Virus record (IMG/VR): IMGVR_UViG_3300017917_003727
DNA from: a virus
Lineage: Duplodnaviria; Heunggongvirae; Uroviricota; Caudoviricetes
Reading direction: 5' to 3' (one strand)
Length of the DNA: 64,000 nucleotides
Positions 10,910-55,214 of this stretch are shown here, one piece after another. The notes below the pieces were generated by a model. The model was not told the DNA's origin. It ran no database searches and was given only the letters and a program-made list of their open reading frames with translations. The stretch's first letter is position 1. Every line of letters begins with the position of its first letter. Both the position numbers and the translations under genes were made by a program.

Positions 10910-11449
10910 ATGAATAAACAAAGAAAAGAAACAGTAGGGACCAAGTATTTACTAATTGGTTTTGGGGATTTCAAAGGAAATCAGAAACTAATAACACAAT
11001 TATTCAATCAATTCACACCCATACTTTCATCTAGTTTCCTAAAATTTCATTTTGGTGATGATTATGTGATTGCTCATTTTGAAACAGAAGAAACTCAAAA
11101 AAACGTGAGAGAATTTTGTAATATGGTATTACAAAACACAATTTGTAATTTTATTTTACTTCCACACAATAAAAATGTCATGGTTTCGTTACCAAAAGAA
11201 CTTCAAGACTTTTTATTCAATTTAGACCAACAAGACCAAATAATTACTGACAATTTGTCTGATAATGTTGAGGAAGAAGACGAAAGAGATTTTATGGAAC
11301 AATTGTTGGAAAAATTAAATACACCAAAAACACAAGAAGAAACAAAATTGTCGCTCGACGAACTACTAGATAAAATTCAACAAAAAGGTATTGACCAACT
11401 AACACAGAAAGAAAAACAACAACTATATGACTATTCAAAAGGAATCTAA
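10910..11449 (+). CDS. Hypothetical protein with acidic C-terminus
   Basis: 179-aa ORF immediately upstream of and overlapping the sigma factor gene. Confidence 0.4.
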   Translation: MNKQRKETVGTKYLLIGFGDFKGNQKLITQLFNQFTPILSSSFLKFHFGDDYVIAHFETEETQKNVREFCNMVLQNTICNFILLPHNKNVMVSLPKELQDFLFNLDQQDQIITDNLSDNVEEEDERDFMEQLLEKLNTPKTQEETKLSLDELLDKIQQKGIDQLTQKEKQQLYDYSKGI

Positions 11450-17293: not shown

Positions 17294-17779
17294 ATGGAAA
17301 TGAAGTATAACATGGACCAATTTTTTAATTGGTTGGCAAAACCGATGTTACCTGAGGAAATTGACGCTTGGTATAAGTCAAATAATATCATTCCTGAGAT
17401 GAGTGATTTATTCAGGGATTTTTGTTTCTCATTATTAAAATTAGTCGATGAAACTTATTTAGGTAATGATGAAGATTCAAAGGAAACAAAAATAGGATTA
17501 ACTCAAGAAGACAAATTGGCTCATTTTGTTTGGTGTTGGAACAAAACAGTGAATAACTTTGAAAAAGAAAATATTGTATTCATCAAAAACGAAGAAACTT
17601 TTAACTACTTTAAAAACTTCTTCATGGAGGTATATTATAACCAAGAACAAGACTTTATACGAAAATCACTCAGTGATTTTTTTATTCAAATTTTCAATAG
17701 GAACAATAAACATAGTAAATCAGATATTGAGATGTTTACTGAACTTTATAAACTATTAGAAAAGAGTTTACAACATTAA
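17294..17779 (+). CDS. Hypothetical protein
   Basis: 161-aa ORF. Confidence 0.4.
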   Translation: MEMKYNMDQFFNWLAKPMLPEEIDAWYKSNNIIPEMSDLFRDFCFSLLKLVDETYLGNDEDSKETKIGLTQEDKLAHFVWCWNKTVNNFEKENIVFIKNEETFNYFKNFFMEVYYNQEQDFIRKSLSDFFIQIFNRNNKHSKSDIEMFTELYKLLEKSLQH

Positions 17780-17794
17780 TTAAACCTATTTCTA

Positions 17795-17824
17795 TTTACA
17801 ATAAACCACAAAAAATTAACTTTT
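17795..17824 (+). promoter_or_regulatory. Promoter TTTACA-N16-TAACTTTT (variant of the conserved module)
   Basis: Upstream of a small basic-protein gene. Confidence 0.35.
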
Positions 17825-17841
17825 AATAAAAATAAGAAAAA

Positions 17842-18018
17842 ATGGAAACACTAGAAAAAATCAAAGCGATTATTGAAAATCTATCTGTAGATGCTACTAA
17901 ATTCTACCAAGGAAATAAATCCGCAGGTACAAGAGCTAGAAAACACTGTCAAGATTTGAAAGCTTTAGCTCAACAATTAAGAGGCGAAATATTGGAAGCA
18001 AAAAAAGATGATAAGTAA
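17842..18018 (+). CDS. Small basic histone H1-like / nucleoid-associated protein (58 aa)
   Basis: METLEKIKAIIENLSVDATKFYQGNKSAGTRARKHCQDLKALAQQLRGEILEAKKDDK resembles the short GNKAAGTR-containing 'histone H1-like' proteins common in Bacteroidetes; below the ORF-track cutoff. Confidence 0.4.
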   Translation: METLEKIKAIIENLSVDATKFYQGNKSAGTRARKHCQDLKALAQQLRGEILEAKKDDK

Positions 18019-18156
18019 TTTATTATCACATATAAGTCTTTTTATATTTGTTTTTTCAGTATTATCATTACTGAGACTCACCTTTTTATTTATAAGTTCT
18101 CTCATTTCGTATAAAAATTTAAAATTAGAAATGAGGGAACTTATTTTTTATGGTAT

Positions 18157-18594
18157 TTGTCTTTCATATTTTATATCTTATATTGTATCTATATGAGTTT
18201 TTACAAGGAAGTTGAAAAAATAATAGAATATACAAACTCAATAAGAAAATTAGAAAATTATTTGAGTTTCGATTTATTGTTTCCCGCAAGTTGGTCAATA
18301 CTAAAAAGTCAAGTAGATGAAACTAAAACAGTTTTTCATAAAACTGATGATAAAGGAAAAACGGTTTCCTTTTTATCGGAAATAAATGAAACATCAATTA
18401 CCGAAACGGTGCAAACAATTGAAAAAATAATTCATTTCAATAAAGAAAAAGAAGAAAAACAAAGATTATTCAACGAAAAAGTAAATGAGTTGAAAAATTT
18501 ATTCGAGAAAGAAAGTTTAACAGAATTAAAGGCTTTAAAATTCGATATAGATGAAACACCAAAACTTGAAGGAACCGAAGAGTCAATATCTTGA
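18157..18594 (+). CDS. Hypothetical protein (start may be ATG 18193)
   Basis: 145-aa ORF; N-terminal 12 aa hydrophobic. Confidence 0.35.
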   Translation: MSFIFYILYCIYMSFYKEVEKIIEYTNSIRKLENYLSFDLLFPASWSILKSQVDETKTVFHKTDDKGKTVSFLSEINETSITETVQTIEKIIHFNKEKEEKQRLFNEKVNELKNLFEKESLTELKALKFDIDETPKLEGTEESIS

Positions 18595-18778
18595 TAGATT
18601 GTTGACGTGGTATGATAAAACCAAAAAGATTGACGAAGTTGAGGTCAAAAAACAAAAAGAAGAGTTTATCGAACAAATTAAAAAATTTAAAAAACAAGAT
18701 ATTAAAAACTCAACTAATGAACCACCTGAGGGTATATCAATATGGATGAGAATAAAGAAAACGTTAGGGATTGGTTAA
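18551..18778 (+). CDS. Small hypothetical protein
   Basis: 75-aa ORF. Confidence 0.3.
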   Translation: MKHQNLKEPKSQYLDRLLTWYDKTKKIDEVEVKKQKEEFIEQIKKFKKQDIKNSTNEPPEGISIWMRIKKTLGIG

Positions 18779-18966
18779 ATGATTTGGGATTGATTGTTGA
18801 ATCTATTGAAAAAACATTTATTTCAGAAAACTGTAAAATAGTTGTAGAGTTGGAAGAGGATAAATTTAGAAAGTTCCAAAGAAACTTTAGAGAAATTGAC
18901 AGAACTAGAAACGAAATTGTTGTTGTTATAGATAATATCGAGTTTACTTTTTTTCTGAAAAAGTAG
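18742..18966 (+). CDS. Small hypothetical protein
   Basis: 74-aa ORF. Confidence 0.3.
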   Translation: MDENKENVRDWLNDLGLIVESIEKTFISENCKIVVELEEDKFRKFQRNFREIDRTRNEIVVVIDNIEFTFFLKK

Positions 18967-19585
18967 TAGACTGTCTGTAAAGTTTTTTCTTATCAAAACC
19001 ATTATCTTCTAATAATTTATATAGGTATTTTCTATGTACCGTATTTGAATCACTAACAAAGATAGCGTCAGCTCTTTTTTTATCAATCATATAATTTTGT
19101 AATACTGAAATGAATCTTTTAGATTCATTTTTGTTTTTTAACGAGAAAAGATTAACCAAATCATCATTCTGAACTACAACTTTGTTATTGACTGTAAAAA
19201 TGTTTTTTAAACCAGAGGTATTAACATACTTTAAACAAAACTCTTCAAAATCTATTCTTTTGTTTTGTTTCCAATCAAATATTTTTTCAGGTAAATTATA
19301 TTTTTGTAGTCTTATAATTTTATAATCTGAGTCCGTCATTTCTATTTTTACGTTTCTACCCATATCATCTTGTTTAAAAAGTACCATTTGAGTGTCATCC
19401 AAAACAGATATTATTGATATTTCATATGTAACTTTATTGGCGTTTTCAACAACTACTTCAAACTGTACCTTGTTAGATTCGTCAATACATTTGTTAAAAA
19501 ACAATTCCGCCTTATTTTTTCTTACAAAAGATTTGATGATTTTTTTTCTTTTCTTATTTTTAAACAATACAACCAAATAGTTCAT
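18944..19585 (-). CDS. Hypothetical protein
   Basis: 213-aa minus-strand ORF abutting the dnaJ start. Confidence 0.4.
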
Positions 19586-28976: not shown

Positions 28977-30776
28977 ATGTCTTTAATTCAAATTATATCA
29001 GAAAGTAGAAAAGATACTTTTACTTCAAAGTTTTCTAACAAGTTCACAACAGAACAATTGGAATCCATTGTTCAAAACTCAGAAAAAATACCAGGACAAA
29101 ACAAATATCTTATGTTTATGGGTAATACAATAAACCCTAAAAACTTCAAAGACGATTTGTCTATTGTTACTAAACTATTAGAAAGGTTTTCATCTGTTGG
29201 AAGTAACTTACCACTCAAAGATATTAATCAGTATAAAAATATTGCTGAACTTAGAAACGCTCTAAATGAATATGACAATAGAGTTAGAAGAGAGATAAAA
29301 ACAGTAGATGATGCAGATGTTGTTTATGAAGACGACACTCTTACTGTTGTAATGCCAAAGACTTATAAAGCTTCATGTCAATTCGGTGCGGGTACAAAAT
29401 GGTGTACAACTTCATCAGACACTTATTTTAGAAGATACAATGAAGAAGCGAAATTGTTTTATTTTATTGATAAAAAAAGACCTACTTCAGACCCATTATA
29501 TAAAGTCGCTTTACTACAAAAATTCAATGGAGACAAGACATACTTTAACGCTAAGGATGATGCGTTCACAACGGGTTGGATATTTGGTTCAGAAAAACTT
29601 GAAAAGATATTAAATCGTATTAACACCTACATAAGAACAACATTCCCTGAAGAACTTAAAATTTGGAATGACAAGGAAGCTGCAGAACAAGAAAGAAGAA
29701 GACTAAGAGCTCAGGAAGAGGCAAGAAGACAGGCCGAGAGATTAGAAGGAATACAACAAAGAAGAGAGGAGGGACACTTTGATTTGGCACAATATCCAAA
29801 TGATAGTGATACCATAAGAGCAAACGCCCTATTCCAACATTTAGTTACTATTGCTGAATTGGATGTAATGTCAGATGAAGACAAAGAAGAACTTCAAAGA
29901 ATGCAAACAAATTTAGAGGAACTAAATACAAGATATGAAAATGGTGAAGAAGACCTTGTAGATGAGATATCTGACTTAGAACAAGAAATACAAGATTTCC
30001 AAAGTAATTATCAAGACATATACGATTTAGTTCCCGAAGGATGGACACACTATGGTCTCCAAGTATTTTCTTTTGATGGCGCTGAATACGCGGTAGGTAG
30101 TGAACGCGAAATGGATGTTGCTGCTTGGGATTATGTGGACAATTTAATTGATGAGATTGGAATTGAAGGATTTAATGCTGGTTTTGTATCAAACTATGTA
30201 AATGACAGTGAGGTTGAAGATTATATTAGAGATTTTTTTGAGAGTGATGTTTATGAAAACCCTGAATCTTATTTAAGTGATGAAGATAGAACATTAAGTG
30301 GTCAACAAGAACAAGAAATCGAAGATTTAAGAAGAGAAGAAAAAGAATTAGAAGCTCAAAGAGACGCACTTGAAACTCAAAAAGACGCACTTGATACTGG
30401 TGATGAAAATTGGGAAGAACAATATGACGCATTTAATGATAAAATTTCTGAAATAGAAGACAGACTTTTAGAAATTCCTGATGAAATTGATGAAATAGAA
30501 AATAATCCTGATGGTGATTATGATACATCAAAATTAGATGATATTGTTGAAGATAGAGTTAGTTGGTATAGTGATAATCCTGAAAGATTTGTGTCTGAAT
30601 ATATTGGAGAAGAATATTCAACATGGGTTATTAATAATAATTTTGTAGATAGAAGTGAATTTATTCAGGGTGTTATTGACTCTGACGGATGGGGAACTTT
30701 GTTAAACCCATATGACGGTACATATGAAGAAGAAACTGTCAATGATAGAAGTTATTACATAGTTAGGGTAAATTAA
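28977..30776 (+). CDS. Hypothetical protein: 'TKWC' paralog domain plus long acidic/charged coiled-coil C-terminal region
   Basis: SCQFGAGTKWCTT...Y...LFYFIDKK block; ERRRLRAQEEARRQAERLE coiled coil; very acidic tail. Confidence 0.45.
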   Translation: MSLIQIISESRKDTFTSKFSNKFTTEQLESIVQNSEKIPGQNKYLMFMGNTINPKNFKDDLSIVTKLLERFSSVGSNLPLKDINQYKNIAELRNALNEYDNRVRREIKTVDDADVVYEDDTLTVVMPKTYKASCQFGAGTKWCTTSSDTYFRRYNEEAKLFYFIDKKRPTSDPLYKVALLQKFNGDKTYFNAKDDAFTTGWIFGSEKLEKILNRINTYIRTTFPEELKIWNDKEAAEQERRRLRAQEEARRQAERLEGIQQRREEGHFDLAQYPNDSDTIRANALFQHLVTIAELDVMSDEDKEELQRMQTNLEELNTRYENGEEDLVDEISDLEQEIQDFQSNYQDIYDLVPEGWTHYGLQVFSFDGAEYAVGSEREMDVAAWDYVDNLIDEIGIEGFNAGFVSNYVNDSEVEDYIRDFFESDVYENPESYLSDEDRTLSGQQEQEIEDLRREEKELEAQRDALETQKDALDTGDENWEEQYDAFNDKISEIEDRLLEIPDEIDEIENNPDGDYDTSKLDDIVEDRVSWYSDNPERFVSEYIGEEYSTWVINNNFVDRSEFIQGVIDSDGWGTLLNPYDGTYEEETVNDRSYYIVRVN

Positions 30777-30814
30777 TATTCATTTTAATATAAAAATGAA
30801 TTAGATTAGGATAT

Positions 30815-31540
30815 ATGAAGACAGATTGGATGATAGATGAGCCGATTGATTTTGAGTACCAAGAGTACAAGATGTTGGCTTATTTTCAAAAAGTATCTCA
30901 AGACTTAGACAATTTTAAACTATATCCACATTTTAGAGATATATCACTTCATTATGCCAATTTTTCAAACTTAAAATCCAAAGACAAATATATTGTTCTG
31001 AGAAGTGAAATGGAAGATGTGGATGATGAAATATTGTTGACTGATTTGGAGTTTGCAGAAATTCCTAAAATGTCACCACAAGAATATTCAGAATATAGAA
31101 CAATAGTTGATTTTGCTGAGGATAAATTTAAAGATTATTTTTTGGTTGCCAAATCTGTTTGGACAATTATATATGAGTCACTGTGGGTTAGTTTGTTAGA
31201 GAATGACGACCAATTAAAAAGAGGTAGAGGATATGTGTTTTTTGATTATGGAGATTTGAACTACCTTTACAGATTCGAGCAAAAACCTTTCAAAAGAAAT
31301 AAAAAAGAAAAAAAAATGACTCTTACACCAATTAAAATAACACAAGAGTCTTTAGATATTCCAAAATTAATTTCAGAGGATAAATACGAAATAAAAAAAC
31401 CAGGACATCCAATATTTGTTATTAAAATTAAGAAGAACACAGATACTTTTGTACCTTTGGAAGAAACAATATTACCACTAATTAAAAGAAGAATTAATTC
31501 TTTTGTTCAACAAGCGAAACCAATTAAAACTTTGAAATAA
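30815..31540 (+). CDS. Hypothetical protein
   Basis: 241-aa ORF. Confidence 0.4.
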   Translation: MKTDWMIDEPIDFEYQEYKMLAYFQKVSQDLDNFKLYPHFRDISLHYANFSNLKSKDKYIVLRSEMEDVDDEILLTDLEFAEIPKMSPQEYSEYRTIVDFAEDKFKDYFLVAKSVWTIIYESLWVSLLENDDQLKRGRGYVFFDYGDLNYLYRFEQKPFKRNKKEKKMTLTPIKITQESLDIPKLISEDKYEIKKPGHPIFVIKIKKNTDTFVPLEETILPLIKRRINSFVQQAKPIKTLK

Positions 31541-31981: not shown

Positions 31982-32584
31982 ATGAAAGTTATATTCCTTG
32001 ACCACGATGGCGTAATTTGCCTTTCTTCCGAGTGGGGAGGTCGTTTTAAAAAAGAAAAAAAATTTAGAGAAAAAACGGGTGTTGAAAGAAAATTAAGTTC
32101 ACCGCATTACGGACTGCCAGTTGAATGTAGGTTTGACAATTTTAATAAAAAAGCAATTAACGTTCTTAATGAAATTTTAAAAGAAACAGGTGCTGAGATA
32201 GTTGTATCGTCAGATTGGAAAAGATGGGCAAATGTAGAAGAAATGGGTGAATACTATGAGTCACAGGGTATTGTTAAAAAACCAATTGCATTTACAAAAA
32301 GTCTACAAGATTGTACTCATCATAATGAGAAAACGTTTATTTGGTCAAGAGATTGGGACCTTGAACAATCAAGAAGTGTTGAAATCAAACAATACTTAAT
32401 TGACCATCCTGAAATTACACATTGGGTTGCAATTGATGACCTTAATATGGGAAAAACAGGGTTACATTATGGTATGGAATTCGAACACGATTGGGGGTTA
32501 GACAACTTTGTTTACACACCACTTTCAAATGAAGGTATCAAACAAAACGGAGTTAAAGAAAAAATTTTAAAACATTTGTCATGA
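31982..32584 (+). CDS. HAD-superfamily phosphatase (polynucleotide 3'-phosphatase / nucleotidase-like)
   Basis: N-terminal FLDHDGVI (DxDG motif I) and downstream SSDW / IDD acid motifs. Confidence 0.5.
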   Translation: MKVIFLDHDGVICLSSEWGGRFKKEKKFREKTGVERKLSSPHYGLPVECRFDNFNKKAINVLNEILKETGAEIVVSSDWKRWANVEEMGEYYESQGIVKKPIAFTKSLQDCTHHNEKTFIWSRDWDLEQSRSVEIKQYLIDHPEITHWVAIDDLNMGKTGLHYGMEFEHDWGLDNFVYTPLSNEGIKQNGVKEKILKHLS

Positions 32585-33215: not shown

Positions 33216-34409
33216 ATGTTAACAAAATTAGAATACGTTTGGTTAGACGGTTATACACCTGAACCAAACCTCAGAAGTAAAGTAAAAGTATGTAGACTTG
33301 ACAGTTGGAGTGTTGAAAGATTGCCCGAATGGTCCTTTGATGGTTCATCAACGAAACAAGCTGAAGGACACTTTTCAGATTGTATTTTGAAACCTGTGAG
33401 AGTTTACGAAAATCCATTAAACAAAGGTACAATTCGTTCTTTGTTGGTACTATGTGAGGTAATGAATCCCGATGGTACGCCACACAGTACAAACACAAGA
33501 GCTAAAATTGGTGAAGAGCAAGAAGATTTGTGGTTTGGTTTTGAACAAGAATATACCATTATGAAAGATGGTAGACCATTGGGTTTCCCTGATAATGGAT
33601 ACCCTGAACCACAAGGTAAATACTATTGTGGCGTTGGTAATGGACAGGTTCATGGTCGTGAGTTTGTAGATAAACACATGGAGTATTGTATCAAAGCGAA
33701 CATTGATATTACAGGTACAAACGCTGAAGTTCTTTTAGGTCAGTGGGAATACCAAGTATTTTCAAAGGGTAAACTTAAAGCTGGAGACGACCTATGGGTG
33801 TCAAGATACATTCTTCAACAAATGTCAGAAGATTACGGATTTAAAATTGAGTTCCATCCAAAACCTGTTCAAGGTGATTGGAATGGTTCAGGACTACATT
33901 GTAACTTCTCAAACAATAGAATGAGAAATGAGGGTGGTGAAGAATACTTCAAAAACATATTTAGAGCTTTTGATGTTAGACATGAATTACACATTGAAAA
34001 TTATGGTTCAGATAATCATCTTCGTTTAACTGGTAAACATGAAACCCAATCAATCGATAAATTCAGTTGGGGGGTTTCAGACAGAGGTTCGTCAATAAGA
34101 GTTCCATTGTCAACAGCTAAAGAGTGGAAAGGATATGTCGAAGACCGCAGACCAGCATCAAATGGTGACCCATATAAAATCGTTAATGTAATTTCAAGTT
34201 CTATTGAGTTTGCAGAAGTATTAGACAAAACAAATTCAAACATTACTAACAACATAGATTTGTTAAATATCTCTAAAAAATACGGTACTTTAACTGATGA
34301 AGAACTTTTGGCGGAATTTGTAAAAGATACTGAATTTGATATGAGTGAAACCATGGCCCACACCAATGAAACAATAACTGAAATTAAGTTTAATCCTGAA
34401 AATAATTAA
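33216..34409 (+). CDS. Glutamine synthetase type II (eukaryote-like GlnII) homologue with C-terminal extension
   Basis: EYVWLDG...LRSKVKV N-terminus, GKYYCGVGNGQVHGREFVDKH, TGTNAEVLLGQWEYQV, FHPKPVQGDWNGSGLHCNFS blocks align to GS-II catalytic motifs. Confidence 0.7.
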   Translation: MLTKLEYVWLDGYTPEPNLRSKVKVCRLDSWSVERLPEWSFDGSSTKQAEGHFSDCILKPVRVYENPLNKGTIRSLLVLCEVMNPDGTPHSTNTRAKIGEEQEDLWFGFEQEYTIMKDGRPLGFPDNGYPEPQGKYYCGVGNGQVHGREFVDKHMEYCIKANIDITGTNAEVLLGQWEYQVFSKGKLKAGDDLWVSRYILQQMSEDYGFKIEFHPKPVQGDWNGSGLHCNFSNNRMRNEGGEEYFKNIFRAFDVRHELHIENYGSDNHLRLTGKHETQSIDKFSWGVSDRGSSIRVPLSTAKEWKGYVEDRRPASNGDPYKIVNVISSSIEFAEVLDKTNSNITNNIDLLNISKKYGTLTDEELLAEFVKDTEFDMSETMAHTNETITEIKFNPENN

Positions 34410-34410
34410 T

Positions 34411-34596
34411 ATGTCAGAAGAAGTTAAAGAAACCGAAAAATGTATCATGTGTGGAATTGATACAGGAATCGTTAAACAAAAACCAATTCAAGATAGACTG
34501 GCATATATCGAAGGTGCTGGCCAAATGTGTAGTAAATGTTTTTTAGATTTTTATAAAAAGGTTCACATAAACGATGACACTAAATCGAAGCCATAA
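34411..34596 (+). CDS. Small zinc-ribbon protein
   Basis: CIMCG ... CSKCF. Confidence 0.35.
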   Translation: MSEEVKETEKCIMCGIDTGIVKQKPIQDRLAYIEGAGQMCSKCFLDFYKKVHINDDTKSKP

Positions 34597-35068
34597 AAGA
34601 ACAATTCTTGTCGGCAAAGCTGGTTCAGGAAAAGACTTTCTTAGAAAAAAATTTGAAGGTCGTGGGTTTAAATATGCAATAAGTTATACCACAAGACCAC
34701 CAAGAGAAGGTGAAGTTCATGGTAAAGACTATTATTTTATATCCGAAGACGAGGCTAAAGTTTTAATTGAGTCAGGATTTTTTTATGAATATGTAATCTT
34801 TAACGGATGGATTTATGGAACATCATTAACACAATTCTACAGTGATGATTTATTCATAATGACACCCAAAGGTATTTCAAGAATAAAAGAAGAAGATAGA
34901 GAAAATTCTTTTATTATTTATCTTGATATTCCAACAAATGTTAGAATTAAAAGATTGGGTAAAAGAGAAATGCCTGGTGATTCATTAAGAAGAAGAATTG
35001 AAGCTGATGAAATAGACTTTGATGATTTTATTGATTATGATTTAAGAATAACAAACCCTGATTTCTAA
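34574..35068 (+). CDS. Guanylate kinase-like nucleoside monophosphate kinase
   Basis: P-loop GKAGSGKD and YTTRPPREGEVHGKDYYF signature. Confidence 0.6.
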   Translation: MTLNRSHKRTILVGKAGSGKDFLRKKFEGRGFKYAISYTTRPPREGEVHGKDYYFISEDEAKVLIESGFFYEYVIFNGWIYGTSLTQFYSDDLFIMTPKGISRIKEEDRENSFIIYLDIPTNVRIKRLGKREMPGDSLRRRIEADEIDFDDFIDYDLRITNPDF

Positions 35069-35934
35069 TGGAAGAACTGAAAGAATATTTAAATAGAATC
35101 ACAGTAGGTAACTGTATAGACGTTATGTCTGACCTACCTCAAAACTCAATTGACTTATTGGTTACATCTCCACCATATAATGTTGGTATTGAATATGACC
35201 AACATGACGATAGGATGAGTATGAACGAATATTGGCAGTTTACTGAAGATTGGTTAAAAGAATCGTTCAGAGTATTAAAAGATGATGGTAGGATTGCTAT
35301 TAATATTCCTTATGAAGTTAACGTACAAGATAGAGGTGGTAGAGTTTTGTTTATGGCTGAGTTTTGGGCAATAATGAAGAAAGTTGGATTTAAATTCTAC
35401 GGTTTAGTAGATTTGAACGAAGATTCTCCTCATAGAAGTAAAACTACGGCTTGGGGTTCTTGGATGTCACCCTCTTCACCATACATTTATAATCCAAAAG
35501 AATGTGTAATCTTGGCCTATAAGAACCTATCTAAAAAGGTCGTTAAAGGAGTTCCACAATGGCAACCTGAGTATGTGGAGAAAGAAGATGGTAAACTAAA
35601 GGCAACATATACTGAAAATGAAAAGAAAGAATTCATGAGTTTGGTTTATGGTCAGTGGGATTATTTTGCCGACACAAAACAAATGACTAAAGCAACATTT
35701 TCTATGGATATACCAACCAAAGCTATTAAAATTTTAACATATAAGGGTGATATTGTTTTAGACCCATTCATGGGTTCAGGAACATCAGCTTTAGCCGCTG
35801 AATTTTTGGGAAGACATTGGATTGGTATTGAGTTAAGTGAATCTTATGTTGAAGTTGCAAATAGGAGAGTTGGTGAATATCGAGCCAAACTATTACAAAC
35901 AAAATTACAATTAGAAGAGGTTAGCAAGTTCTAA
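35068..35934 (+). CDS. DNA methyltransferase (N6-adenine or N4-cytosine, beta class)
   Basis: Catalytic SPPY (LLVTSPPYNVG) precedes AdoMet motif LDPFMGSGTS. Confidence 0.65.
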   Translation: MEELKEYLNRITVGNCIDVMSDLPQNSIDLLVTSPPYNVGIEYDQHDDRMSMNEYWQFTEDWLKESFRVLKDDGRIAINIPYEVNVQDRGGRVLFMAEFWAIMKKVGFKFYGLVDLNEDSPHRSKTTAWGSWMSPSSPYIYNPKECVILAYKNLSKKVVKGVPQWQPEYVEKEDGKLKATYTENEKKEFMSLVYGQWDYFADTKQMTKATFSMDIPTKAIKILTYKGDIVLDPFMGSGTSALAAEFLGRHWIGIELSESYVEVANRRVGEYRAKLLQTKLQLEEVSKF

Positions 35935-35948
35935 CCTCTTTTTTTTTT
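35917..35948 (+). terminator. Rho-independent terminator
   Basis: GAGGTTAG-caagtt-CTAACCTC then T10. Confidence 0.65.
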
Positions 35949-35967
35949 CTACTGAGTATTTATTAGT

Positions 35968-36756
35968 ATGGAAAATGTATCAGAAGTAGTTGCTGGATTA
36001 CAGGAACTTTTTAATCAAGTGAAATACTTTCACTGGCAAACTAAATCATTTGCTCAACACGAAGCATTCGGAAAAGTATTTGACTCTTTATCAGATTTAA
36101 TTGATGAATTTGTTGAAGTCTCAATGGGTAAATACGGTAGACCATCAACCAAAGGTCAAGAATTAGAGATGTTTGACCTAGAAGATGTAGATATAATGGA
36201 TTGGACTTCAGGTGTTGTTGATTACTTAATATCATTTGATGATATTTTAGATGATGTTGAAGATACTGACCTATTGAACATACGTGATGAAATGATGGCA
36301 CAATTTAATAAATTAAAATACCTATTAACGCTTAAGGAAAGTAAAAGAAAAAAAGTAATAAAACTTACTGAGGCTGATTTATATAGAATTGTTAAAAGAG
36401 TTATAACGGAAGAAAATGAAACTGCGAAAAAACAAATTGTTGGTAGTTTAATGTCAACAGATGGTCAATATGTTAATAGAGTAATAAAAAGTCTTGGACA
36501 AAATTTAAAAACAGAATTATTTAGAATTGTTTATGTTAGTGGTAAAGTAATTAGACAAAAGAACAAACAAATTGCATCTAGAGACATGTACATCGATAAA
36601 AACGAAAATTTTATATTTGTTCCTAAATCAAGTATTACCGTCGCTCTCTTCAAAAAGAAAACTGACCCAAAAAATCCTACAGATTATCCTACAGTACAAC
36701 TTAATTTTGGGGCTGACGAATCAGGTAAACTATACGTAGAAGGTGTTGGGGCATAA
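35968..36756 (+). CDS. Hypothetical protein
   Basis: 262-aa ORF. Confidence 0.4.
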   Translation: MENVSEVVAGLQELFNQVKYFHWQTKSFAQHEAFGKVFDSLSDLIDEFVEVSMGKYGRPSTKGQELEMFDLEDVDIMDWTSGVVDYLISFDDILDDVEDTDLLNIRDEMMAQFNKLKYLLTLKESKRKKVIKLTEADLYRIVKRVITEENETAKKQIVGSLMSTDGQYVNRVIKSLGQNLKTELFRIVYVSGKVIRQKNKQIASRDMYIDKNENFIFVPKSSITVALFKKKTDPKNPTDYPTVQLNFGADESGKLYVEGVGA

Positions 36757-38168
36757 TGGGAAAAACACTAATTAGGGAATCGGGAATTAGAGAAATTAAG
36801 GAACTAGCAAAAAGATATCCTAAAGCTAGAATATATTTTCACCAAGATTTGGATGGTGTTACCACCGCAATTGCAATGAAAAAATATCTTGAATCTAATG
36901 GTATCCAAGTTTCTGGTGTTGAAGTTATACAATATGGTGAAAGAGAATTTGCAATTAGTAAAGTAGATGCTGAAGGTGATACAATGCCAGTTTTAGTTGA
37001 TTTTGCACACGGTAAACCAATGTTCAAAATACATACCGACCACCATGATACTCAAGTAGGTGCTGGCGATACAAAGGCAACATCATTTAAAGAATCACCA
37101 TCAAACGTTAGAACAATTTCACAAGTATTATCACCACGTGATATATTCACAGATACCGATATTAATCTAATATCAACCGTAGACTCGGCTAAATTTAAGG
37201 GATTAAAACCTAAAGATATTATGAATTTTGTTTTCAGACTAGACAAAGAAGCTGGTTTGGAAAAAAACAAATTTGCTATGGGTTTAGTTGCTAACAAACT
37301 TCTTTTAGCGTATAAAAACAAAAAAGGTTTTTTGGAATACTTGGTTATGAATTCTGCACCATCCCTATATTCAATATTAAATAATATTAAAAAATACGCA
37401 CAGGAAAATAATCTATTATCTGTTGATGATATGATTAAAAACCAAGAAAAATATATTGAACAACAAAGAACCAGTGAAGACATAAAGTATGATGATGGTA
37501 TTATAGTACAATATGGTACGGGTTACTTAAGAACTGGTTCATATGATAGATACACACCATTTGAATTACACCCTGATGCTGACTTCTTGGTTATATCATA
37601 CCTCAATGGTATGGTTCAATCATCGTGTAACCCATTTAAAGAAAACAGGGCTTTACCTGGTATTAATTTAAAAAAAATCGCTGATGATGTATTGGAATCG
37701 GGAAGGTCTTGGTTTGAATCTAAGATTGTTCCTATCACAACAATTAAATGGGTTAGTGAAAGTGCTGCAGAAGCCGCGACTTCTGTTGGTTTTACTAGCA
37801 AAGATTTGGAAGCTTTTTATCCTCAAATTGTTACAAAAATTAAAAAAGCAGGTGAAAATGTTTGGGAAATATTTAGTAAGATTATGGACAAACCATATTC
37901 TTTATTAACTGAAAATGAATTAACAGTTTTAGATAGATTTGGGATACCACTTTGGGACATTATTAAAACTAACTCAGGTGGACACAGATGTATTACTAAT
38001 ATATCTGGTTTGAATTACTATGGTAGAGCAAGAAGAAGACCTGTGAAAACTTCATACAAGAGAGTAAAAGATGAAAATGATGAAGGTACTCCATATATTA
38101 GATTGATTAAAAATATACAACAACAATTTGCTGATAAGCTAAGAGAAGAAGTTAAATCGTCAACTTAA
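36756..38168 (+). CDS. DHH/DHHA1-family phosphoesterase (NrnA/RecJ-like)
   Basis: HQDLDG, HTDHHD and C-terminal SGGH motifs. Confidence 0.55.
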   Translation: MGKTLIRESGIREIKELAKRYPKARIYFHQDLDGVTTAIAMKKYLESNGIQVSGVEVIQYGEREFAISKVDAEGDTMPVLVDFAHGKPMFKIHTDHHDTQVGAGDTKATSFKESPSNVRTISQVLSPRDIFTDTDINLISTVDSAKFKGLKPKDIMNFVFRLDKEAGLEKNKFAMGLVANKLLLAYKNKKGFLEYLVMNSAPSLYSILNNIKKYAQENNLLSVDDMIKNQEKYIEQQRTSEDIKYDDGIIVQYGTGYLRTGSYDRYTPFELHPDADFLVISYLNGMVQSSCNPFKENRALPGINLKKIADDVLESGRSWFESKIVPITTIKWVSESAAEAATSVGFTSKDLEAFYPQIVTKIKKAGENVWEIFSKIMDKPYSLLTENELTVLDRFGIPLWDIIKTNSGGHRCITNISGLNYYGRARRRPVKTSYKRVKDENDEGTPYIRLIKNIQQQFADKLREEVKSST

Positions 38169-47999: not shown

Positions 48000-49013
48000 A
48001 TGGAAAGAAAATTAGCAACAATCAGGATTATTACGGACATCAGACCTATTGAAGGTGCTGATAAGATTGAACTTGCCAGTGTTGGCGGTTGGAATGTTGT
48101 TGTTGCCAAAGATGTTGGACATAAGGTTAACGATATGGTAATTTATTGTGAGATTGATTCTTTTCTTCCAATTAGAGAAGAGTTTGAATTCTTACGTAAA
48201 TCGTCTTACAAGAAAATGGGTGACCAAGAAGGTTTCCGTCTGAAAACTATTAAACTTCGTGGTCAGGTTTCTCAGGGACTTATTCTTCCTATTCACGTTT
48301 TACCTTTGGGTGAAATGGTTCACGAAGGTCAGGATGTAACCGAAATGTTGGGTATTGTTAAATATGAACCACCAATTCCTGCAGAACTTGCTGGTAAAGT
48401 TAAAGGTCAGTTCCCATCATTCTTACAAAAGACCGATGAAGAAAGGGTTCAAAACTTGGTTGGTGAATATGAGAAATATAAATTAACTTCTTCTCATCAG
48501 TTTTATGTTACTGAAAAACTTGATGGTTCATCCTCAACATTCTACATCAAAGATGGTGAGTTCGGTGTATGTTCTCGTAATTTAGAATTACTTGAAACGG
48601 AAGGTAACACGTTTTGGAAAGTAGCTCGTGAAATGAACTTGGAAGAAAAACTTAAATCAACAGGTAAAAACATTTGTTTACAAGGTGAACTGATTGGTGA
48701 AGGCATTCAAGGAAATCCATACAAGATTAAAGGTCATAGAGTTATGTTCTTCAACGCCTTTGATATTGATAAACACCAAAGAATGACCATGCCTCAGTTC
48801 TTAGAACTTATGGAAAGTTTAGAACTCCAACACGTACCATGTTTAGAATTACCTTTCTTGTTACCAAGTACAGTTGAAGGTATGTTAAAATATGCTGAGG
48901 GAACATCTGTACTTAACAGACAGACTGAAAGGGAAGGTGTTGTAGTAAGGTCTTACGATAATAAGATTAGTTTCAAAGCAATTTCTAACAAATTTTTGTT
49001 GGAGGAAAAATAA
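48000..49013 (+). CDS. ATP-dependent RNA ligase, Rnl5-like (N-terminal OB-like domain plus nucleotidyltransferase)
   Basis: KxDG motif I (VTEKLDGSSSTFY) and N-terminal IRII...ADKIELASVGGWNVVV domain as in DraRnl/NgrRnl-type ligases. Confidence 0.55.
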   Translation: MERKLATIRIITDIRPIEGADKIELASVGGWNVVVAKDVGHKVNDMVIYCEIDSFLPIREEFEFLRKSSYKKMGDQEGFRLKTIKLRGQVSQGLILPIHVLPLGEMVHEGQDVTEMLGIVKYEPPIPAELAGKVKGQFPSFLQKTDEERVQNLVGEYEKYKLTSSHQFYVTEKLDGSSSTFYIKDGEFGVCSRNLELLETEGNTFWKVAREMNLEEKLKSTGKNICLQGELIGEGIQGNPYKIKGHRVMFFNAFDIDKHQRMTMPQFLELMESLELQHVPCLELPFLLPSTVEGMLKYAEGTSVLNRQTEREGVVVRSYDNKISFKAISNKFLLEEK

Positions 49014-49928: not shown

Positions 49929-50453
49929 ATGAAAAGAATGACAATTGACAACACCCACTCAGAGATTGGGTTTAAAGTAAGACATCTTATGATTTCAACA
50001 GTTAAAGGTAATTTTAATACTTTTTCTGGTGGAATACAAGAAGACGGAAACGTATTTGTATCCATAAACGTTGGTTCAATCAATACAGGTAACGTAGACC
50101 GAGATAATCATCTTAAGTCTGCCGATTTCTTCAACTCTGAAGAATACCCTACAATTAATTTTGGAGGTAAGATGAGTGAAGACATGTCTACTGTTACAGG
50201 TGAGATTACAATCAAAGGGATAACCAAAGAAGTTACACTTAACACCGAATATAACGGTATGGGTGTTGACCCTTGGGGAAACACAAAGCACGGATGGGAA
50301 ATTACAGGTTCAATCAACCGTAATGATTTTGGTCTTACATGGAACGCTCCACTTGAAACAGGTGGTGTATTGTTAAGTGAAGAAGTTAAACTTAGCATTG
50401 ACGTTCAGATGGTAGAAGTTGTGGAAGAAATGGCTGTAGAATCAGCTGAATAA
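49929..50453 (+). CDS. YceI-family protein (moron-like insert)
   Basis: YceI-like blocks (FKVRHLMISTVKGNF, SINTGNVDRDNHLKSADFF, RNDFGLTWN); own promoter and terminators on both sides. Confidence 0.6.
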   Translation: MKRMTIDNTHSEIGFKVRHLMISTVKGNFNTFSGGIQEDGNVFVSINVGSINTGNVDRDNHLKSADFFNSEEYPTINFGGKMSEDMSTVTGEITIKGITKEVTLNTEYNGMGVDPWGNTKHGWEITGSINRNDFGLTWNAPLETGGVLLSEEVKLSIDVQMVEVVEEMAVESAE

Positions 50454-50477
50454 TCTTCACTCAATTAAAACATTAAA

Positions 50478-50504
50478 ACCCTCACTCAAAAGGTGGGGGT
50501 TTTT
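50478..50504 (+). terminator. Rho-independent terminator, family copy 2
   Basis: CCCTCAC-tcaaaa-GGTGGGGG then T5. Confidence 0.65.
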
Positions 50505-50516
50505 GTATTTATAGAC

Positions 50517-50708
50517 ATGAAGGAATTCATCAAATTTTTAATTATTTGGATTGCTAGTAACCTTTCAATACCCTTTTGGGTTATTGGACATGTTCATTTA
50601 ACCATGAATATTTATCAAGATATCTACGAGATTATTGCTTCTTTTGGTATGAATATTATTGTTGCTTTAGGTTTTTGGTTAGATTGGAAATCACAGAAAA
50701 AAACATAA
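50517..50708 (+). CDS. Small membrane protein
   Basis: Two hydrophobic helices; ATG 50517 in frame within ORF-track 50493. Confidence 0.35.
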   Translation: MKEFIKFLIIWIASNLSIPFWVIGHVHLTMNIYQDIYEIIASFGMNIIVALGFWLDWKSQKKT

Positions 50709-50775
50709 CATATTGTTAATATTTAATTAACACTATTACAAGATTTTTTTACTACTTATTGGTGGTAAAAAATTT

Positions 50776-53007
50776 ATGTCATTACTATACATAGCACTAT
50801 TCAACCTAATACCAGGTCCGATAGACACAGCAAAAGCTGAAACCATTGGTCAAGTTACCGTCAAGGCTTCGTCAAAAAAAGAAACAGTATCTTCTGTAAT
50901 TAATATTCAAAGAAAGAGTTTAACAATAATGGATGCAGTGTCATCCGAATCAATTAAAAAAACACCTGACAGAACAATTGGGGATGTTTTAAAAAGAGTT
51001 GGTGGTACATCAATACAAAATGATAAGTTTGTAGTTGTTAGGGGTCTTGCTGATAGATACAATTCGGTTTTAGTAAATGGTTCAATCATAGGTTCAACAG
51101 AACCTGATAGGAAATCATTTTCATTTGATTTAATACCATCAAATACAATTGATAATTTAGTTGTTTACAAAACCGCATCACCTGATTTACCTGGTGATTT
51201 TTCAGGTGGAGTAATAAAACTAACAACTAAAGTGGTAGACTCAAAATCAAAATCATTTGATTTTGGATTAGGATATGGAACGTTAAGTTCTTTTAGAAAT
51301 TCTTGGCAAATATCATCATATGTTTTACCTAATAATTTTTTAACTACCAAAGAATTTAGAGCATTATCAAGTGAGGCAAGACACGTAGAGTCACAAAAAA
51401 TAACACAATCTTTTAACCCAACACAAGGATTTAATATCCCTAATTTGACTCTTGTTTATAATCAGGGTAACATGACCAAAAAGTTTTCTTATTTGACAAA
51501 TTTTACATTAAGAAATTCACATAATATTACCACAACACAAAGAAAAGATTATATGTCGGGTAATGATTTAATGTATGATTATACCGACAAGATTTATACT
51601 AACACAACAAGTTTTGGTGGAATTGTAAATTTGAAGTATAAAAAATATGATTTTAAAAATAATATTAATTATTTGAATGAAAATTCTATTACAAATAGAA
51701 ACGGAATTAACTTTGATAATGAACAGTTAATTACAAGTAGTAGTTCTAATCACAATAGAAAGTTTATTTTGATGTCACAATTTGTGACCCCAAAGTACTC
51801 ATTTAATTATACATTGTTACACAGAAGTCAGCCAGATTATAGAGTTAATCCATTTGCCAAGAACATCACATCAAATGGTGATAGTTCGTTTGTATGGAGA
51901 GATTCTTACAGGTTTTGGAGTACCATGAACGAACACACTTTTGGTGGTTATTACAACGATACGATTGGTAAATTCAAATATGGTTTCTACGAACAATTAA
52001 AATACAGAAATTTTGGAGCGAGAGTTTTCAGATACGAACCAAATTACATTTTAAGTGAAATTACGAACAACACCGACAAGTATAATGCATATTCTAACTT
52101 ACTTTCAGGATATGGAATGTATTCTAAAACTTATAATAAGTTTACTACATCAGGTGGAATAAGAATTGAAAATCAAATATTCAAAGTTAATACATATGAT
52201 TTTAGTGGGAGACCACAACAAGTTAATAGAAATTATCTTGATGTATTACCATCATTAAACTTAATCTATGGTGTTAGGAATAATAAAAATATTAGAGCTT
52301 CAGTTAGTAGGACAGTTGCTAGACCTGAGTTTAGAGAAGTAAGTAATTTCTCTTTCTATGACTTTGTTAGAAACGCACAAGTAATTGGAAACCCAAAGTT
52401 ATTAAGAACACAAATAACTAATATTGATTTAAGATACGAGATATATCCATCATCAAAAGAAATTATCACATTCTCAACATTCTATAAAAAATTTACAAAT
52501 CCAATTGAACAAATTGTTGATAATGGTTCGGTACCAAGCAACTTAATTTTAACATTATCTAACCCTAAACAAGCAACAATATACGGTGGAGAATTGGAAA
52601 TAAGGAAATCAATTAATAACAATTTCACAATATATTCCAACTTGTCTTATTTTAAATCTGAAGTTAATATTCAAGGGAGAACAAGACAATTGCAAGGACA
52701 ATCACCATACATTATCAACACAGGATTGTATTATACAAAAGGAAAGTACTCTGTTAATATGTTCTATAATAGAATTGGAGAAAGAATATCGGCAGTAGGA
52801 TTTCAAGGGTATCCCGACATTTATGAAAATGCAAGGGATGTAATTGACTTGACAATTCAATACCAAACAAAGAAGATATCAATTAAATTTGGTGTGTCAG
52901 ACTTGTTAGGGCAATACTCAAAGTTTTATCAAAATAATCAAAATAGAACATTAATTAAAACAAATAACGAACAAACAATAAATCTAAATATAAATTACAA
53001 ATTATGA
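50776..53007 (+). CDS. TonB-dependent receptor-like outer-membrane protein (plug plus beta-barrel)
   Basis: Plug-domain blocks (VRGLADRYNSVLVNGS, RKSFSFDLIPS, VYKTASPDLPGDFSGGVIKLTTK); long Y/N/T-rich barrel-like remainder; atypical N- and C-termini. Confidence 0.55.
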   Translation: MSLLYIALFNLIPGPIDTAKAETIGQVTVKASSKKETVSSVINIQRKSLTIMDAVSSESIKKTPDRTIGDVLKRVGGTSIQNDKFVVVRGLADRYNSVLVNGSIIGSTEPDRKSFSFDLIPSNTIDNLVVYKTASPDLPGDFSGGVIKLTTKVVDSKSKSFDFGLGYGTLSSFRNSWQISSYVLPNNFLTTKEFRALSSEARHVESQKITQSFNPTQGFNIPNLTLVYNQGNMTKKFSYLTNFTLRNSHNITTTQRKDYMSGNDLMYDYTDKIYTNTTSFGGIVNLKYKKYDFKNNINYLNENSITNRNGINFDNEQLITSSSSNHNRKFILMSQFVTPKYSFNYTLLHRSQPDYRVNPFAKNITSNGDSSFVWRDSYRFWSTMNEHTFGGYYNDTIGKFKYGFYEQLKYRNFGARVFRYEPNYILSEITNNTDKYNAYSNLLSGYGMYSKTYNKFTTSGGIRIENQIFKVNTYDFSGRPQQVNRNYLDVLPSLNLIYGVRNNKNIRASVSRTVARPEFREVSNFSFYDFVRNAQVIGNPKLLRTQITNIDLRYEIYPSSKEIITFSTFYKKFTNPIEQIVDNGSVPSNLILTLSNPKQATIYGGELEIRKSINNNFTIYSNLSYFKSEVNIQGRTRQLQGQSPYIINTGLYYTKGKYSVNMFYNRIGERISAVGFQGYPDIYENARDVIDLTIQYQTKKISIKFGVSDLLGQYSKFYQNNQNRTLIKTNNEQTINLNINYKL

Positions 53008-54224
53008 AAAAATTGATTCCATTTATCATGGTATTATTATTGGGTTTGGGTTCATGTAAACCCGAAGAACCAATAGTTCCAACTGCAAACACTGAACTTG
53101 TTGGAACATTAACTGAAAACAAAACTTTAACTGCGGACAAAGTTTGGAGTCTTAAAGGTTATGTTTATGTACCTGAAGGTATTACATTAACTATTGAAGC
53201 GGGAACCAAAATTGTTAGTGACGTTACTGAAAAAGGTGCATTGTGTATTGAAAGAGGTGCTAAAATTTATGCTAATGGAACTGCGGACCAACCAATTATT
53301 TTTACATCAGGACAGTCTTCACCAAAACCTGGTGATTGGGGTGGATTGATAATTTTAGGAAACGCTCCAACTAATAAACCAAATCCAACAATTGAAGGTG
53401 GTGTAGGTAGACCCTATGGTGGTGTTGATGAAAGTGACAACAGTGGTGTGTTAAAGTATGTAAGAGTTGAATACGCTGGTATCGCGGCATTTCCTGGTTC
53501 TGAAATTAACGCATTCACATTTGGTGGTGTAGGAAAAGGAACTGTAGTTGATTACTGTGAATCTTACTACGCTAATGATGACGCATTTGAATTCTTTGGT
53601 GGTAATGTAAACTGTTCACATTTAGTGGCTGTTGGAACTGCTGATGATGATTATGATTTTGACTTTGGATATACAGGTACAATAAAATTTGCAATATCAA
53701 AAAGAGACCCATTATTTGTTGATATGGCAGATGCGGGTAATGGTATTGAGTGTGATAATGATGGTACTGGTTCCGTTGCAATTCCAATAACAAAACCTAA
53801 TTTACAAAATTTCACTCTTATTGGTCCTATAGAGTCAACATCTTTATCAAATCACAACTTAGCAATGAGATGGAGAAGAGGAACTGCATTTAATGTTCAA
53901 TATTCTATTTTCTATGGATACATGAAAGGTGGTTTTAGTATTGAATCTGACATCACCGCAGGGTATTTTAATACAGGTATGAGTACAATGTTCAATAATT
54001 ACATATCATCTGTGGATACCGTAAATACAATAAAAACAAGTTCAACATTATTAACAAAAGAAAACATGTTAGCTCTTTGTAGTAAACAAGGAACAATAAT
54101 AACAAGCTCACAAGTTAAACCTTTTGATAATAATTTCCAAACAATTTCAAGTGTGGTAAATGGACAGTGGGGAGCAATCCCTTCGGGTTCCTCAATTTGG
54201 ACTTTGGGTTGGACAAAATTTTAA
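53004..54224 (+). CDS. Lipoprotein, beta-helix-like
   Basis: Signal plus lipobox (LLLGLGSC); G/T/N-rich repetitive beta-strand composition. Confidence 0.45.
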   Translation: MKKLIPFIMVLLLGLGSCKPEEPIVPTANTELVGTLTENKTLTADKVWSLKGYVYVPEGITLTIEAGTKIVSDVTEKGALCIERGAKIYANGTADQPIIFTSGQSSPKPGDWGGLIILGNAPTNKPNPTIEGGVGRPYGGVDESDNSGVLKYVRVEYAGIAAFPGSEINAFTFGGVGKGTVVDYCESYYANDDAFEFFGGNVNCSHLVAVGTADDDYDFDFGYTGTIKFAISKRDPLFVDMADAGNGIECDNDGTGSVAIPITKPNLQNFTLIGPIESTSLSNHNLAMRWRRGTAFNVQYSIFYGYMKGGFSIESDITAGYFNTGMSTMFNNYISSVDTVNTIKTSSTLLTKENMLALCSKQGTIITSSQVKPFDNNFQTISSVVNGQWGAIPSGSSIWTLGWTKF

Positions 54225-54383: not shown

Positions 54384-55214
54384 ATGAAAAACACAGAAAT
54401 ATATAACGAACTAGTACAGAAGATGAGAGAATTCTTCTTAAAGAGAAATTTCAAAGAAGTTCCTACACAAAGTAGACTATCAATCTTGGCGGCTTGTGAA
54501 AACCCACATTCAGTAAAAACATTTGAATATGGTGGATTACAATGGCCATTACCACAAACAGGCCAAATGTGGTTGGAACATGAACTATTAAAAAACCCTG
54601 AATGGGACGGAGTATTTTGTATTTCAACTTCTTACAGGGAAGAAAAAAATCCAATTGAAGGAAGACACGAAATGATATTCCCAATGTTTGAATTCGAATC
54701 AAAAGGAACTATGAGAGAACTTCACCAACTTGAAGTTAGATTACTTGAACATTTAGGTTTTGAAACACCAGCAATTTGTAAATACGATGATGTTTGTCAA
54801 GAGTATGGTGGTGTTGAAATACTTGAAAACGAACATGAACAAAGAATGTGGGAAGAAAAAGGACCTGTAGTTTCATTACAAAACTTTCCATTAAGAACAA
54901 ACCCATTTTGGAATATGAAACATGGTGGAAATAACATTTATAATAAAATTGATGTTATTCTTTACGGTCAAGAAACAATTGGTTCTGCAGAGAGAAGTTG
55001 TGATGTTGAAGAAATGAAAAACAATTTTTACACAATTGAAAATGGTGCTTACTGTGCAAAGTTGTTTGAATTGTTTGGAAAAGAAAGAGTAGAGAAAGAA
55101 CTTGAAGAATTCTTATCGCTTAATTTCTTCCCGAGATTTGGTGGAGGTATTGGAATGACAAGAATGGCTCGGGCTTACGAATTGATGAAACAAGAACAAC
55201 TACAGATGGTGTAA
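54384..55214 (+). CDS. Class II aminoacyl-tRNA-synthetase-like ligase (AsnA/aspartate-ammonia-ligase-like or EpmA-like)
   Basis: Motif 2 YREEKNPIEGRHEMIFPMFEFE and motif 3 GGGIGMTRM of the class II core; no anticodon-binding domain. Confidence 0.5.
   Translation: MKNTEIYNELVQKMREFFLKRNFKEVPTQSRLSILAACENPHSVKTFEYGGLQWPLPQTGQMWLEHELLKNPEWDGVFCISTSYREEKNPIEGRHEMIFPMFEFESKGTMRELHQLEVRLLEHLGFETPAICKYDDVCQEYGGVEILENEHEQRMWEEKGPVVSLQNFPLRTNPFWNMKHGGNNIYNKIDVILYGQETIGSAERSCDVEEMKNNFYTIENGAYCAKLFELFGKERVEKELEEFLSLNFFPRFGGGIGMTRMARAYELMKQEQLQMV

Follow-up and report, generated by a model that had tools for sequence, protein, structure and literature searches.

Identity of the gene

We wanted to know what kind of glutamine synthetase (GS) is encoded by a virus of the Caudoviricetes, whether it is likely to be a working enzyme, and how its long C-terminus should be understood. 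The gene lies at 33216..34409 in a stretch of 64,000 nucleotides from IMG/VR record IMGVR_UViG_3300017917_003727, and this whole stretch is called the window below. Judged from its translation, the gene encodes a type II glutamine synthetase (GS-II; GlnII in bacteria), with a similarity far beyond chance. It belongs to a clade composed of viral sequences only, in which most members continue well beyond the point where cellular GlnII end.

The open reading frame (ORF) starts with ATG. We detected both Pfam domains of the enzyme in its product: Gln-synt_N (PF03951) at amino acids (aa) 4-85, with 44.7 bits against a Pfam cut-off of 33.4, and Gln-synt_C (PF00120) at aa 104-232, with 56.9 bits against a cut-off of 24. 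Further, the NCBIfam GlnII profile (NF041605) aligned end to end, aa 1-328 corresponding to profile positions 1-326 of 333 (E=1.6e-118). Solved GS-II structures matched aa 6-330, with yeast Gln1 (3fky, E=5e-104) and Streptomyces coelicolor GSII (4bax, E=6e-99) among them, and plant, insect and mammalian GS structures gave E values of about 1e-90 to 1e-95. The best GS-I chain among the solved structures reached E=4e-11, compared with 5e-104 to 1e-90 for the GS-II chains. The NCBIfam models of GS-I (TIGR00653) and GS-III scored 52.7 and 27.7 bits against cut-offs of 429 and 470, respectively. We also obtained an AlphaFold2 monomer model (mean predicted local distance difference test, pLDDT, 71.6; predicted template modelling score, pTM, 0.74). 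In a Foldseek search with this model 4bax was the top match (TMt 0.80), and the top 50 matches were all GS-II (TMt 0.70-0.80).

A preliminary description of this locus, made from the sequence letters, had called the product a full-length GS-II. The two Pfam domains, the end-to-end NCBIfam alignment and the matches to GS-II structures bear this out. The blocks that it quoted were located in the translation (EYVWLDG at aa 6-12, GKYYCGVG at 134-141, NAEVLLGQWEYQ at 169-180 and FHPKPVQGDWNGSGLHCNFS at 213-232), and the RVP-like region corresponds to SSIRVP at aa 292-297. The enzyme had also been described as eukaryote-type, which holds only as the textbook nickname of GS-II. Its nearest kin are bacterial GlnII, with 54-62% identity by tblastn; identity to human GS is 44% and to yeast GS about 50%.

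Active site and expected chemistry

As a reference we used the list of 26 substrate-binding residues subjected to alanine mutagenesis in mammalian (human/Chinese hamster ovary, CHO) GS (PMC6601560), numbered by a human GLUL copy identical to PDB 8dnu_A. The phage enzyme was identical at 24 of the 26 positions, and 23 of these 24 residues were invariant across the 81 viral sequences aligned. The remaining one, T166 (equivalent of human T191), was T in 74 and E in 7 of the viral sequences.

The metal ligands E110, E112, E171, E178, H228 and E309 (human E134, E136, E196, E203, H253 and E338) were invariant in all 81 viral sequences, and so were the residues of the ammonium site and Glu flap, D42, S45, Y137 and E276 (human D63, S66, Y162 and E305). 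D42 and S45 belong to the beta-grasp domain and form the ammonium site that is given to the adjacent subunit; the roles of the ammonium-site and flap residues are described in PMC5403932 and PMC6601560. The residues for ATP and glutamate, W106, G167, N223, G224, N230, S232, R237, R270, R290, R295, Y307, R311 and R312 (human W130, G192, N248, G249, N255, S257, R262, R299, R319, R324, Y336, R340 and R341, respectively), were identical to the human ones and invariant in the viral clade.

The two positions that were not identical are, in human numbering, P208->S and K333->W. P208A is tolerated in mammalian GS (PMC6601560), and the position of K333 is occupied by Gly in the active yeast and Streptomyces GS-II, according to structure alignments. 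Therefore we consider both replacements harmless. Altered catalytic residues, as in a pseudoenzyme, were named in the preliminary description as a finding that would contradict it, and we observed no substitution at the metal-binding Glu and His or at the ammonium-site Asp. As far as sequence can show, a pseudoenzyme is excluded.

A second suggestion of the preliminary description was that the enzyme is a repurposed gamma-glutamyl ligase. Its substrate would then be a mono- or polyamine, a peptide or a macromolecule in place of ammonia, and the C-terminal tail would help to recruit it. The GS superfamily gave rise to such ligases repeatedly (PauA7, GlnA2, GlnA3, GlnA4), and the tail is a conserved feature, confined to the viral clade, to which no role is assigned. 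However, gamma-glutamyl-polyamine ligases carry the replacements D50->G, Y179->A and E327->W (GS-I numbering), which make room for bulky amines (PMC5403932), and the equivalents of all three residues are kept in the phage enzyme as D42, Y137 and E276, which belong to the invariant ammonium pocket. The NCBIfam model of gamma-glutamylputrescine synthetase (GGputSyn) scored 33.3 bits against a cut-off of 650. Moreover, only two core positions (L227 and F249) separate the viral clade systematically from the nearest cellular GlnII, which therefore argues for unchanged chemistry. We regard the ligase explanation as very improbable, and a change of substrate appears unlikely. Since the equivalents of D50, Y179 and E327 are kept, the reading that fits best is synthesis of glutamine from ammonia in the ordinary way. 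By its residues, the catalytic core is that of a usual GlnII that depends on ammonia, purifying selection on it is strong, and the enzyme is predicted to be active.

The C-terminal extension

We compared the number of residues that follow the sequence EDRRP. In the phage enzyme there were 89, while in 80 cellular GlnII the median was 28 (range 24-46). The median in the viral clade was 67 (range 27-119), and 67 of the 80 viral sequences had at least 50 residues. The whole product is 397 aa long, compared with about 330-375 aa for a typical GS-II, which ends soon after the C-terminal helix. An extension of ~60 aa had been claimed for this protein. We can confirm it as a segment of about 61 aa (aa 337-397) that was absent from the 80 cellular GlnII.

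The tail is acidic, with 13 D/E against 5 K/R across the last 63 aa. The C-terminal helix of the phage enzyme is about 10 residues longer than the final helix of cellular GlnII. In the AlphaFold model this helix (aa 319-346) has a pLDDT of about 70-89 to roughly aa 340, and beyond aa 346 three short helices follow with pLDDT <50. Folding of the latter segment may require the oligomer or a partner.

Two motifs, A and B, recur in the viral tails. Motif A of the phage enzyme reads KYGTLTDEELLAEF, and the core of its motif B is EIKFN. Both recur in viral members that share just 58-60% identity in the core. In a regular-expression search motif A was found in 35/80 viral loci and motif B in 25/80, and neither was found in the 80 cellular loci (0/80 for each); both motifs together were present in 24/80 viral loci. 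The tails vary within the clade: some end after motif A, some have a different tail, some have a third module, and a few viral members have no tail.

Further, we calculated the ratio of nonsynonymous to synonymous substitution rates (dN/dS) for the tail and for the core. Close pairs gave 0.16-0.21 for the tail and 0.08-0.09 for the core, and the medians over 157 pairs were 0.42 and 0.21, respectively. The tail is therefore genuine coding sequence, and it is constrained, though about two times more loosely than the core.

Six-frame ORFs from the window and from 165 loci (about 2 Mb) were searched with a hidden Markov model (HMM) of the tail, which detected GS C-termini only. Since no stand-alone or transplanted tail module was found there, we see no sign that the tail originated by fusion with a downstream ORF. 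A phmmer search of 1.84 billion representatives with the tail alone gave a single match and missed the family's own representatives, so its sensitivity was limited. The match was a repetitive T/S-rich immunoglobulin (Ig)-like surface protein, which we rejected as compositional. When the tail alone was used in a word-index protein search, the sole match was an uninformative 100-aa fragment of the gene itself. A likeness of motif A to SAP/HeH-type helix motifs was also considered, and there was no Pfam match at E<=0.1.

Most likely the tail would act outside the catalytic pocket, for example in stabilisation of the ring or decamer, in regulation or in docking of a partner. A more specific proposal is that the acidic tail, with motif A (KYGTLsxEELLxEY) and motif B (EEIKFN), is a control or docking module invented by the viruses for their own GS decamer. 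Such a module could free the assembly, localisation and switching of GS from host nitrogen regulation; for example, it could reach into the adjacent subunit or ring, or tether GS to a phage or host partner. We rate this proposal as speculative and rather unlikely. If true, it would make the protein a mechanistically distinct, virus-specific GS-II, beyond a borrowed housekeeping enzyme.

Cellular GS bind regulators, for example TnrA and GlnR in Bacillus and the inactivating factors IF7 and IF17 in cyanobacteria. This kind of binding speaks for another explanation, in which the phage protein is a moonlighting enzyme or a decoy: the acidic tail would bind something, such as a nitrogen regulator of the host, a nucleic acid or a protein of the phage, and catalysis would be secondary or dispensable. 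Purifying selection on the tail, its recurrent motifs and its predicted flexibility, a common trait of docking segments, agree with this explanation too. Nevertheless, 23 of 24 catalytic residues are invariant in a clade whose members share as little as 58% identity, so catalysis itself must be selected. The tail has fewer than 50 residues after EDRRP in 13 of 80 viral relatives and is missing altogether in some of them (L035, L036, L045), so whatever maintains the gene does not depend on the tail. In the flanks examined at 82 loci, no partner gene co-occurred with the tail. We hold a moonlighting or decoy function to be improbable.

A clade of viral glutamine synthetases and its origin

Relatives of this GS were found on at least 592 contigs in IMG/VR. 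The best 80 of them shared 58-84% identity with it and came from contigs of up to 227 kb. More than 120 clusters in a large protein database had 69-96% identity and lengths of 350-415 aa. We searched one genome each of 185,579 prokaryotic species by tblastn and observed nothing above 62% identity. The best cellular matches were metagenome-assembled genomes of Bacteroidota (Roseivirgaceae, Saprospiraceae, Chitinophagaceae, Flavobacteriales), and the next ones belonged to Verrucomicrobiota, Planctomycetota and Poseidoniales.

A neighbour-joining tree was built from 320 core columns of 169 sequences, with 100 bootstraps. The viral clade (n=83: the present gene, 80 sequences from IMG/VR and 2 further metagenomic sequences) had a bootstrap of 100 and contained no cellular member. 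Identity inside the clade fell to 58%, and the nearest cells were at 61-64% over the same columns. The internal depth of the clade is thus similar to its distance to cells, which argues that the acquisition was old and was followed by inheritance within phages.

The donor had been sought in a Bacteroidota host. This part of the suggestion agrees with the nearest cellular sequences; the idea of a recent capture from the host does not stand, and the sister grouping of the viral clade had a bootstrap of 44. A recent capture of host glnII, or cellular DNA mis-assigned to a virus, with the tail as an annotation or read-through artefact, deserves separate attention. The window does hold genes of cellular appearance, which encode a YceI protein, a TonB-dependent receptor and a protein with a type IX secretion system (T9SS) sorting domain, and it has no virion genes; the nearest cellular GlnII come from Bacteroidota. 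Against such an origin stand the limit of 62% identity among the representative genomes, the monophyly and internal depth of the viral clade, and a tail omega well below 1 with motifs conserved in distant members. In addition, the gene order of the flanks is common to viral contigs of up to 227 kb in IMG/VR, and the window encodes a primase, SbcCD, a phage sigma factor, an RNA ligase and phage-only PHROG families. A simple recent capture, with no extension conserved in relatives, had been named in the preliminary description as the finding that would contradict it; what we found is a virus-only clade in which the extension is conserved in most members. We consider recent capture largely refuted and extremely unlikely.

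Proposed role

The explanation that we favour, taken as a whole, is in our opinion quite probable: the gene encodes a predicted competent GlnII on a virus-specific branch carried by large aquatic phages, it would serve glutamine supply, and its tail would act outside the catalytic pocket. The gene would be co-transcribed within a long same-strand block for replication and nucleotide metabolism. Its product (EC 6.3.1.2) would convert glutamate, ATP and ammonium to glutamine through gamma-glutamyl-phosphate, at active sites formed between adjacent subunits of pentameric rings that presumably assemble into a decamer. During infection this would give more, or safer, amide nitrogen of glutamine, free of the control imposed on host GS, for purines, pyrimidines, amino sugars and NAD. 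The acidic, helical tail of 61 aa would be a viral addition with a role in assembly, regulation or docking, and not in the chemistry.

Several points weigh against this explanation. The NCBIfam GlnII score was 395.7 bits and did not reach the equivalog cut-off of 500 bits, which fits a divergent viral branch. The AlphaFold model is that of a monomer, of moderate confidence and unreliable in the tail. The cellular sequences for the tree were picked by means of two N-terminal peptide patterns, the method was neighbour-joining, and the support for the sister grouping was low, as given above. No capsid, portal or terminase gene was found within the 64-kb window, which is part of a contig of 88.7 kb. 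Therefore the phage identity rests on replication-type PHROG matches, on the gene organisation and on how IMG/VR classifies the syntenic relatives. A scan of some 60 ORFs of the window found no glutamine-consuming enzyme and no other nitrogen gene, so that any coupling would be to host pathways.

If the favoured explanation is right, one of the commonest nitrogen-related auxiliary genes in large aquatic phages encodes an intact GS-II of the bacterial type. That a phage lineage has inherited it for a long time speaks for glutamine supply as a recurrent bottleneck of these viruses where waters are poor in nitrogen. Through the clade-specific tail it becomes testable how a virus may have adapted a central metabolic enzyme.

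Genomic neighbourhood

The window has 31% GC, no tRNA gene and 89 ORFs, almost all of them on one strand. It encodes a DNA primase, an exonuclease, SbcD, SbcC and a phage-type sigma factor, as well as two DNA methyltransferases, a guanylate kinase, a DHH phosphoesterase and a ParB-like protein. The phage-only families represented are phrog_14336, phrog_29758 and phrog_200. Features of the GS gene and of its flanks are collected in Table 1.

Table 1. Position of the GS gene, its parts and its recurrent neighbours in the window.
Feature	Coordinates	Strand	Basis
GlnII-type glutamine synthetase ORF, complete, 397 aa, stop included	33216..34409	+	ORF list, Pfam, NCBIfam, PDB, Foldseek
N-terminal beta-grasp domain, aa 4-85	33225..33470	+	Pfam PF03951
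Catalytic domain, aa 104-330	33525..34205	+	Pfam PF00120; residue mapping
C-terminal helix, aa 319-346	34170..34253	+	AlphaFold2 model, C-terminal alignments
Viral-clade extension, aa 337-397	34224..34406	+	C-terminal comparison, dN/dS, pLDDT
Tail motif A, aa 354-371, KKYGTLTDEELLAEFVKD, consensus LseKygTLsneELLkEY.ND	34275..34328	+	recurrence in viral homologues
Tail motif B, extreme C-terminus, aa 385-397, ETITEIKFNPENN, consensus P.EEIKFnln.k	34368..34406	+	recurrence
Two upstream genes (599 aa, 241 aa) accompanying GS in relatives	28977..31540	+	tblastn, 46/82 and 50/82 viral loci
Downstream genes: N6/N4 DNA methyltransferase, DUF5856 protein, DHH-family phosphoesterase	35068..38168	+	Pfam

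The downstream genes were found again near GS in the 82 viral loci, the methyltransferase in 61, the DUF5856 gene in 16 and the DHH gene in 36, and their order (methyltransferase, DUF5856, DHH) was repeated in two relatives (L161 and L162). An upstream-gene product showed, at aa 26-164, weak similarity to a 'structural protein' of PA5oct-like jumbo phages. Directly 3' of GS there is a 61-aa ORF with a CxxC...CxxC pattern, a zinc ribbon by eye, followed by a guanylate kinase gene (Pfam E=8e-20; both within 34411-35068, +). They were present in 4/82 and 2/82 related loci, respectively, and are not conserved partners of GS.

The preliminary description had paired GS with a second ATP-dependent amidoligase, an AsnA-like protein encoded at 54384-55214 (+), and this pairing was not supported. 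That ORF has 276 aa and contains the catalytic core of a class-II aminoacyl-tRNA synthetase (aaRS) alone, with no anticodon-binding domain. It matched Pfam tRNA-synt_2 (E=1.6e-11) and phrog_29758, annotated as 'unknown function' (E=1.8e-95). AsnA was not matched, and the other matches were weak ones to AspRS, AsnRS and EpmA-like cores. Nothing in these searches marks the ORF as AsnA, and it was near GS in only 4 of 82 related loci.

The host is probably a member of the Bacteroidota. Several signals point there: the window encodes a TonB-dependent receptor and a protein with a T9SS sorting domain, a relative has a CHU_C protein next to its GS, and the closest cellular GlnII come from this phylum. 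Phage-encoded proteins destined for the type IX secretion system of Bacteroidota hint at the host. The sorting domain (Por_Secre_tail) lies at the C-terminus of a 630-aa protein encoded at 62051-63943 (+), and its score of 25.7 bits is just below the cut-off of 27. The CHU_C-domain protein is encoded at 17364-19424 of locus L161. The receptor is part of a cell-like block of genes within a phage-like region (49929-54224, +). This block comprises a YceI-like protein (49929-50453, Pfam E=4e-43), the TonB-dependent receptor itself (50776-53007, 743 aa, with Plug and barrel domains) and an adjoining 406-aa protein with no assigned family (53004-54224). A phage-encoded outer-membrane transporter is unusual. 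The 634-kb megaphage LR745206 encodes a homologue of the receptor (26% identity, 93% coverage), and others were found on short contigs of faecal origin named 'Bacteriophage sp.'.

Other genes of the window concern transcription and RNA. The sigma factor (11427-12248, +; phrog_351, E=1e-52) adjoins the module of SbcCD, primase and exonuclease, and being of the phage type it suggests that the virus has its own promoter specificity. We also observed a HAD domain of the 'Swiss Army Knife RNA repair' type (31982-32584, +; Pfam E=4e-21) and an RNA ligase (48000-49013, +; phrog_968, E=2e-87). One relative has T4 RNA ligase 1 and an AAA_33 kinase near its GS. The lineage may have a toolkit for RNA repair.

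Comparison with known systems

Bacterial GlnII (NF041605; 4bax; sequences from Bacteroidota, Verrucomicrobiota and Planctomycetota) have the same two-domain architecture as the phage enzyme and are collinear with its aa 1-330. Their metal, ATP, glutamate and ammonium residues are also the same. The phage enzyme differs from them in its acidic extension of 61 aa and in its place in a separate, virus-only clade.

The eukaryotic GS-II (human GLUL, yeast Gln1, plant GS1 and GS2) share the fold and the catalytic residues and are more distant than bacterial GlnII. The phage enzyme has no counterpart of their N-terminal meander/degron region, and the sequence of its tail has no relation to the C-terminus of any eukaryotic GS. 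The plastid GS2 of plants has a short C-terminal extension too.

Among GenBank phage records, the sole matches at the level of GS-II were in the megaphages LR756501, LR756503, LR756502 and LR745206 (630-735 kb), with 45-59% identity; these four assemblies are unannotated. GS of LR756501 (L163) has 331 aa and no tail, and it groups with cellular GlnII. Those of LR756502 (L164) and LR745206 (L165) are about 50% identical to the present enzyme and fall outside the grouping that unites the viral clade with the cellular GlnII. Since these megaphage GS-II lie outside the clade described here, several independent captures by phages are suggested.

The presence of GS in large phages has been described before. 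In the Huge Phage Genome Collection preprint (10.1101/2025.02.27.640493), 247 huge phages are reported to carry 248 GS genes, of which 215 come from freshwater or marine habitats. According to another report (PMC12619734), GS occurs in 9 of 25 moraphages, which are large aquatic phages with predicted Bacteroidota hosts, and a jumbo-phage survey lists glnA among the auxiliary metabolic genes. In these sources phage GS is read as a takeover of nitrogen metabolism (10.1101/2025.02.27.640493, PMC12619734). The window fits these accounts of a large aquatic phage with a Bacteroidota host, the comparison being one of descriptions and not of sequences. As far as their accessible text goes, the huge-phage and moraphage papers report presence and counts, and give no GS type, active-site analysis, virus-only clade or C-terminal extension; in the same scope, the jumbo-phage survey likewise describes neither GS type nor clade nor tail. 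Because GS in large aquatic phages was already published (2025), our result is incremental, and the tail is a detail undescribed in that text. Together, the old virus-only clade and the conserved tail are modestly new details of a gene that large phages were already known to carry.

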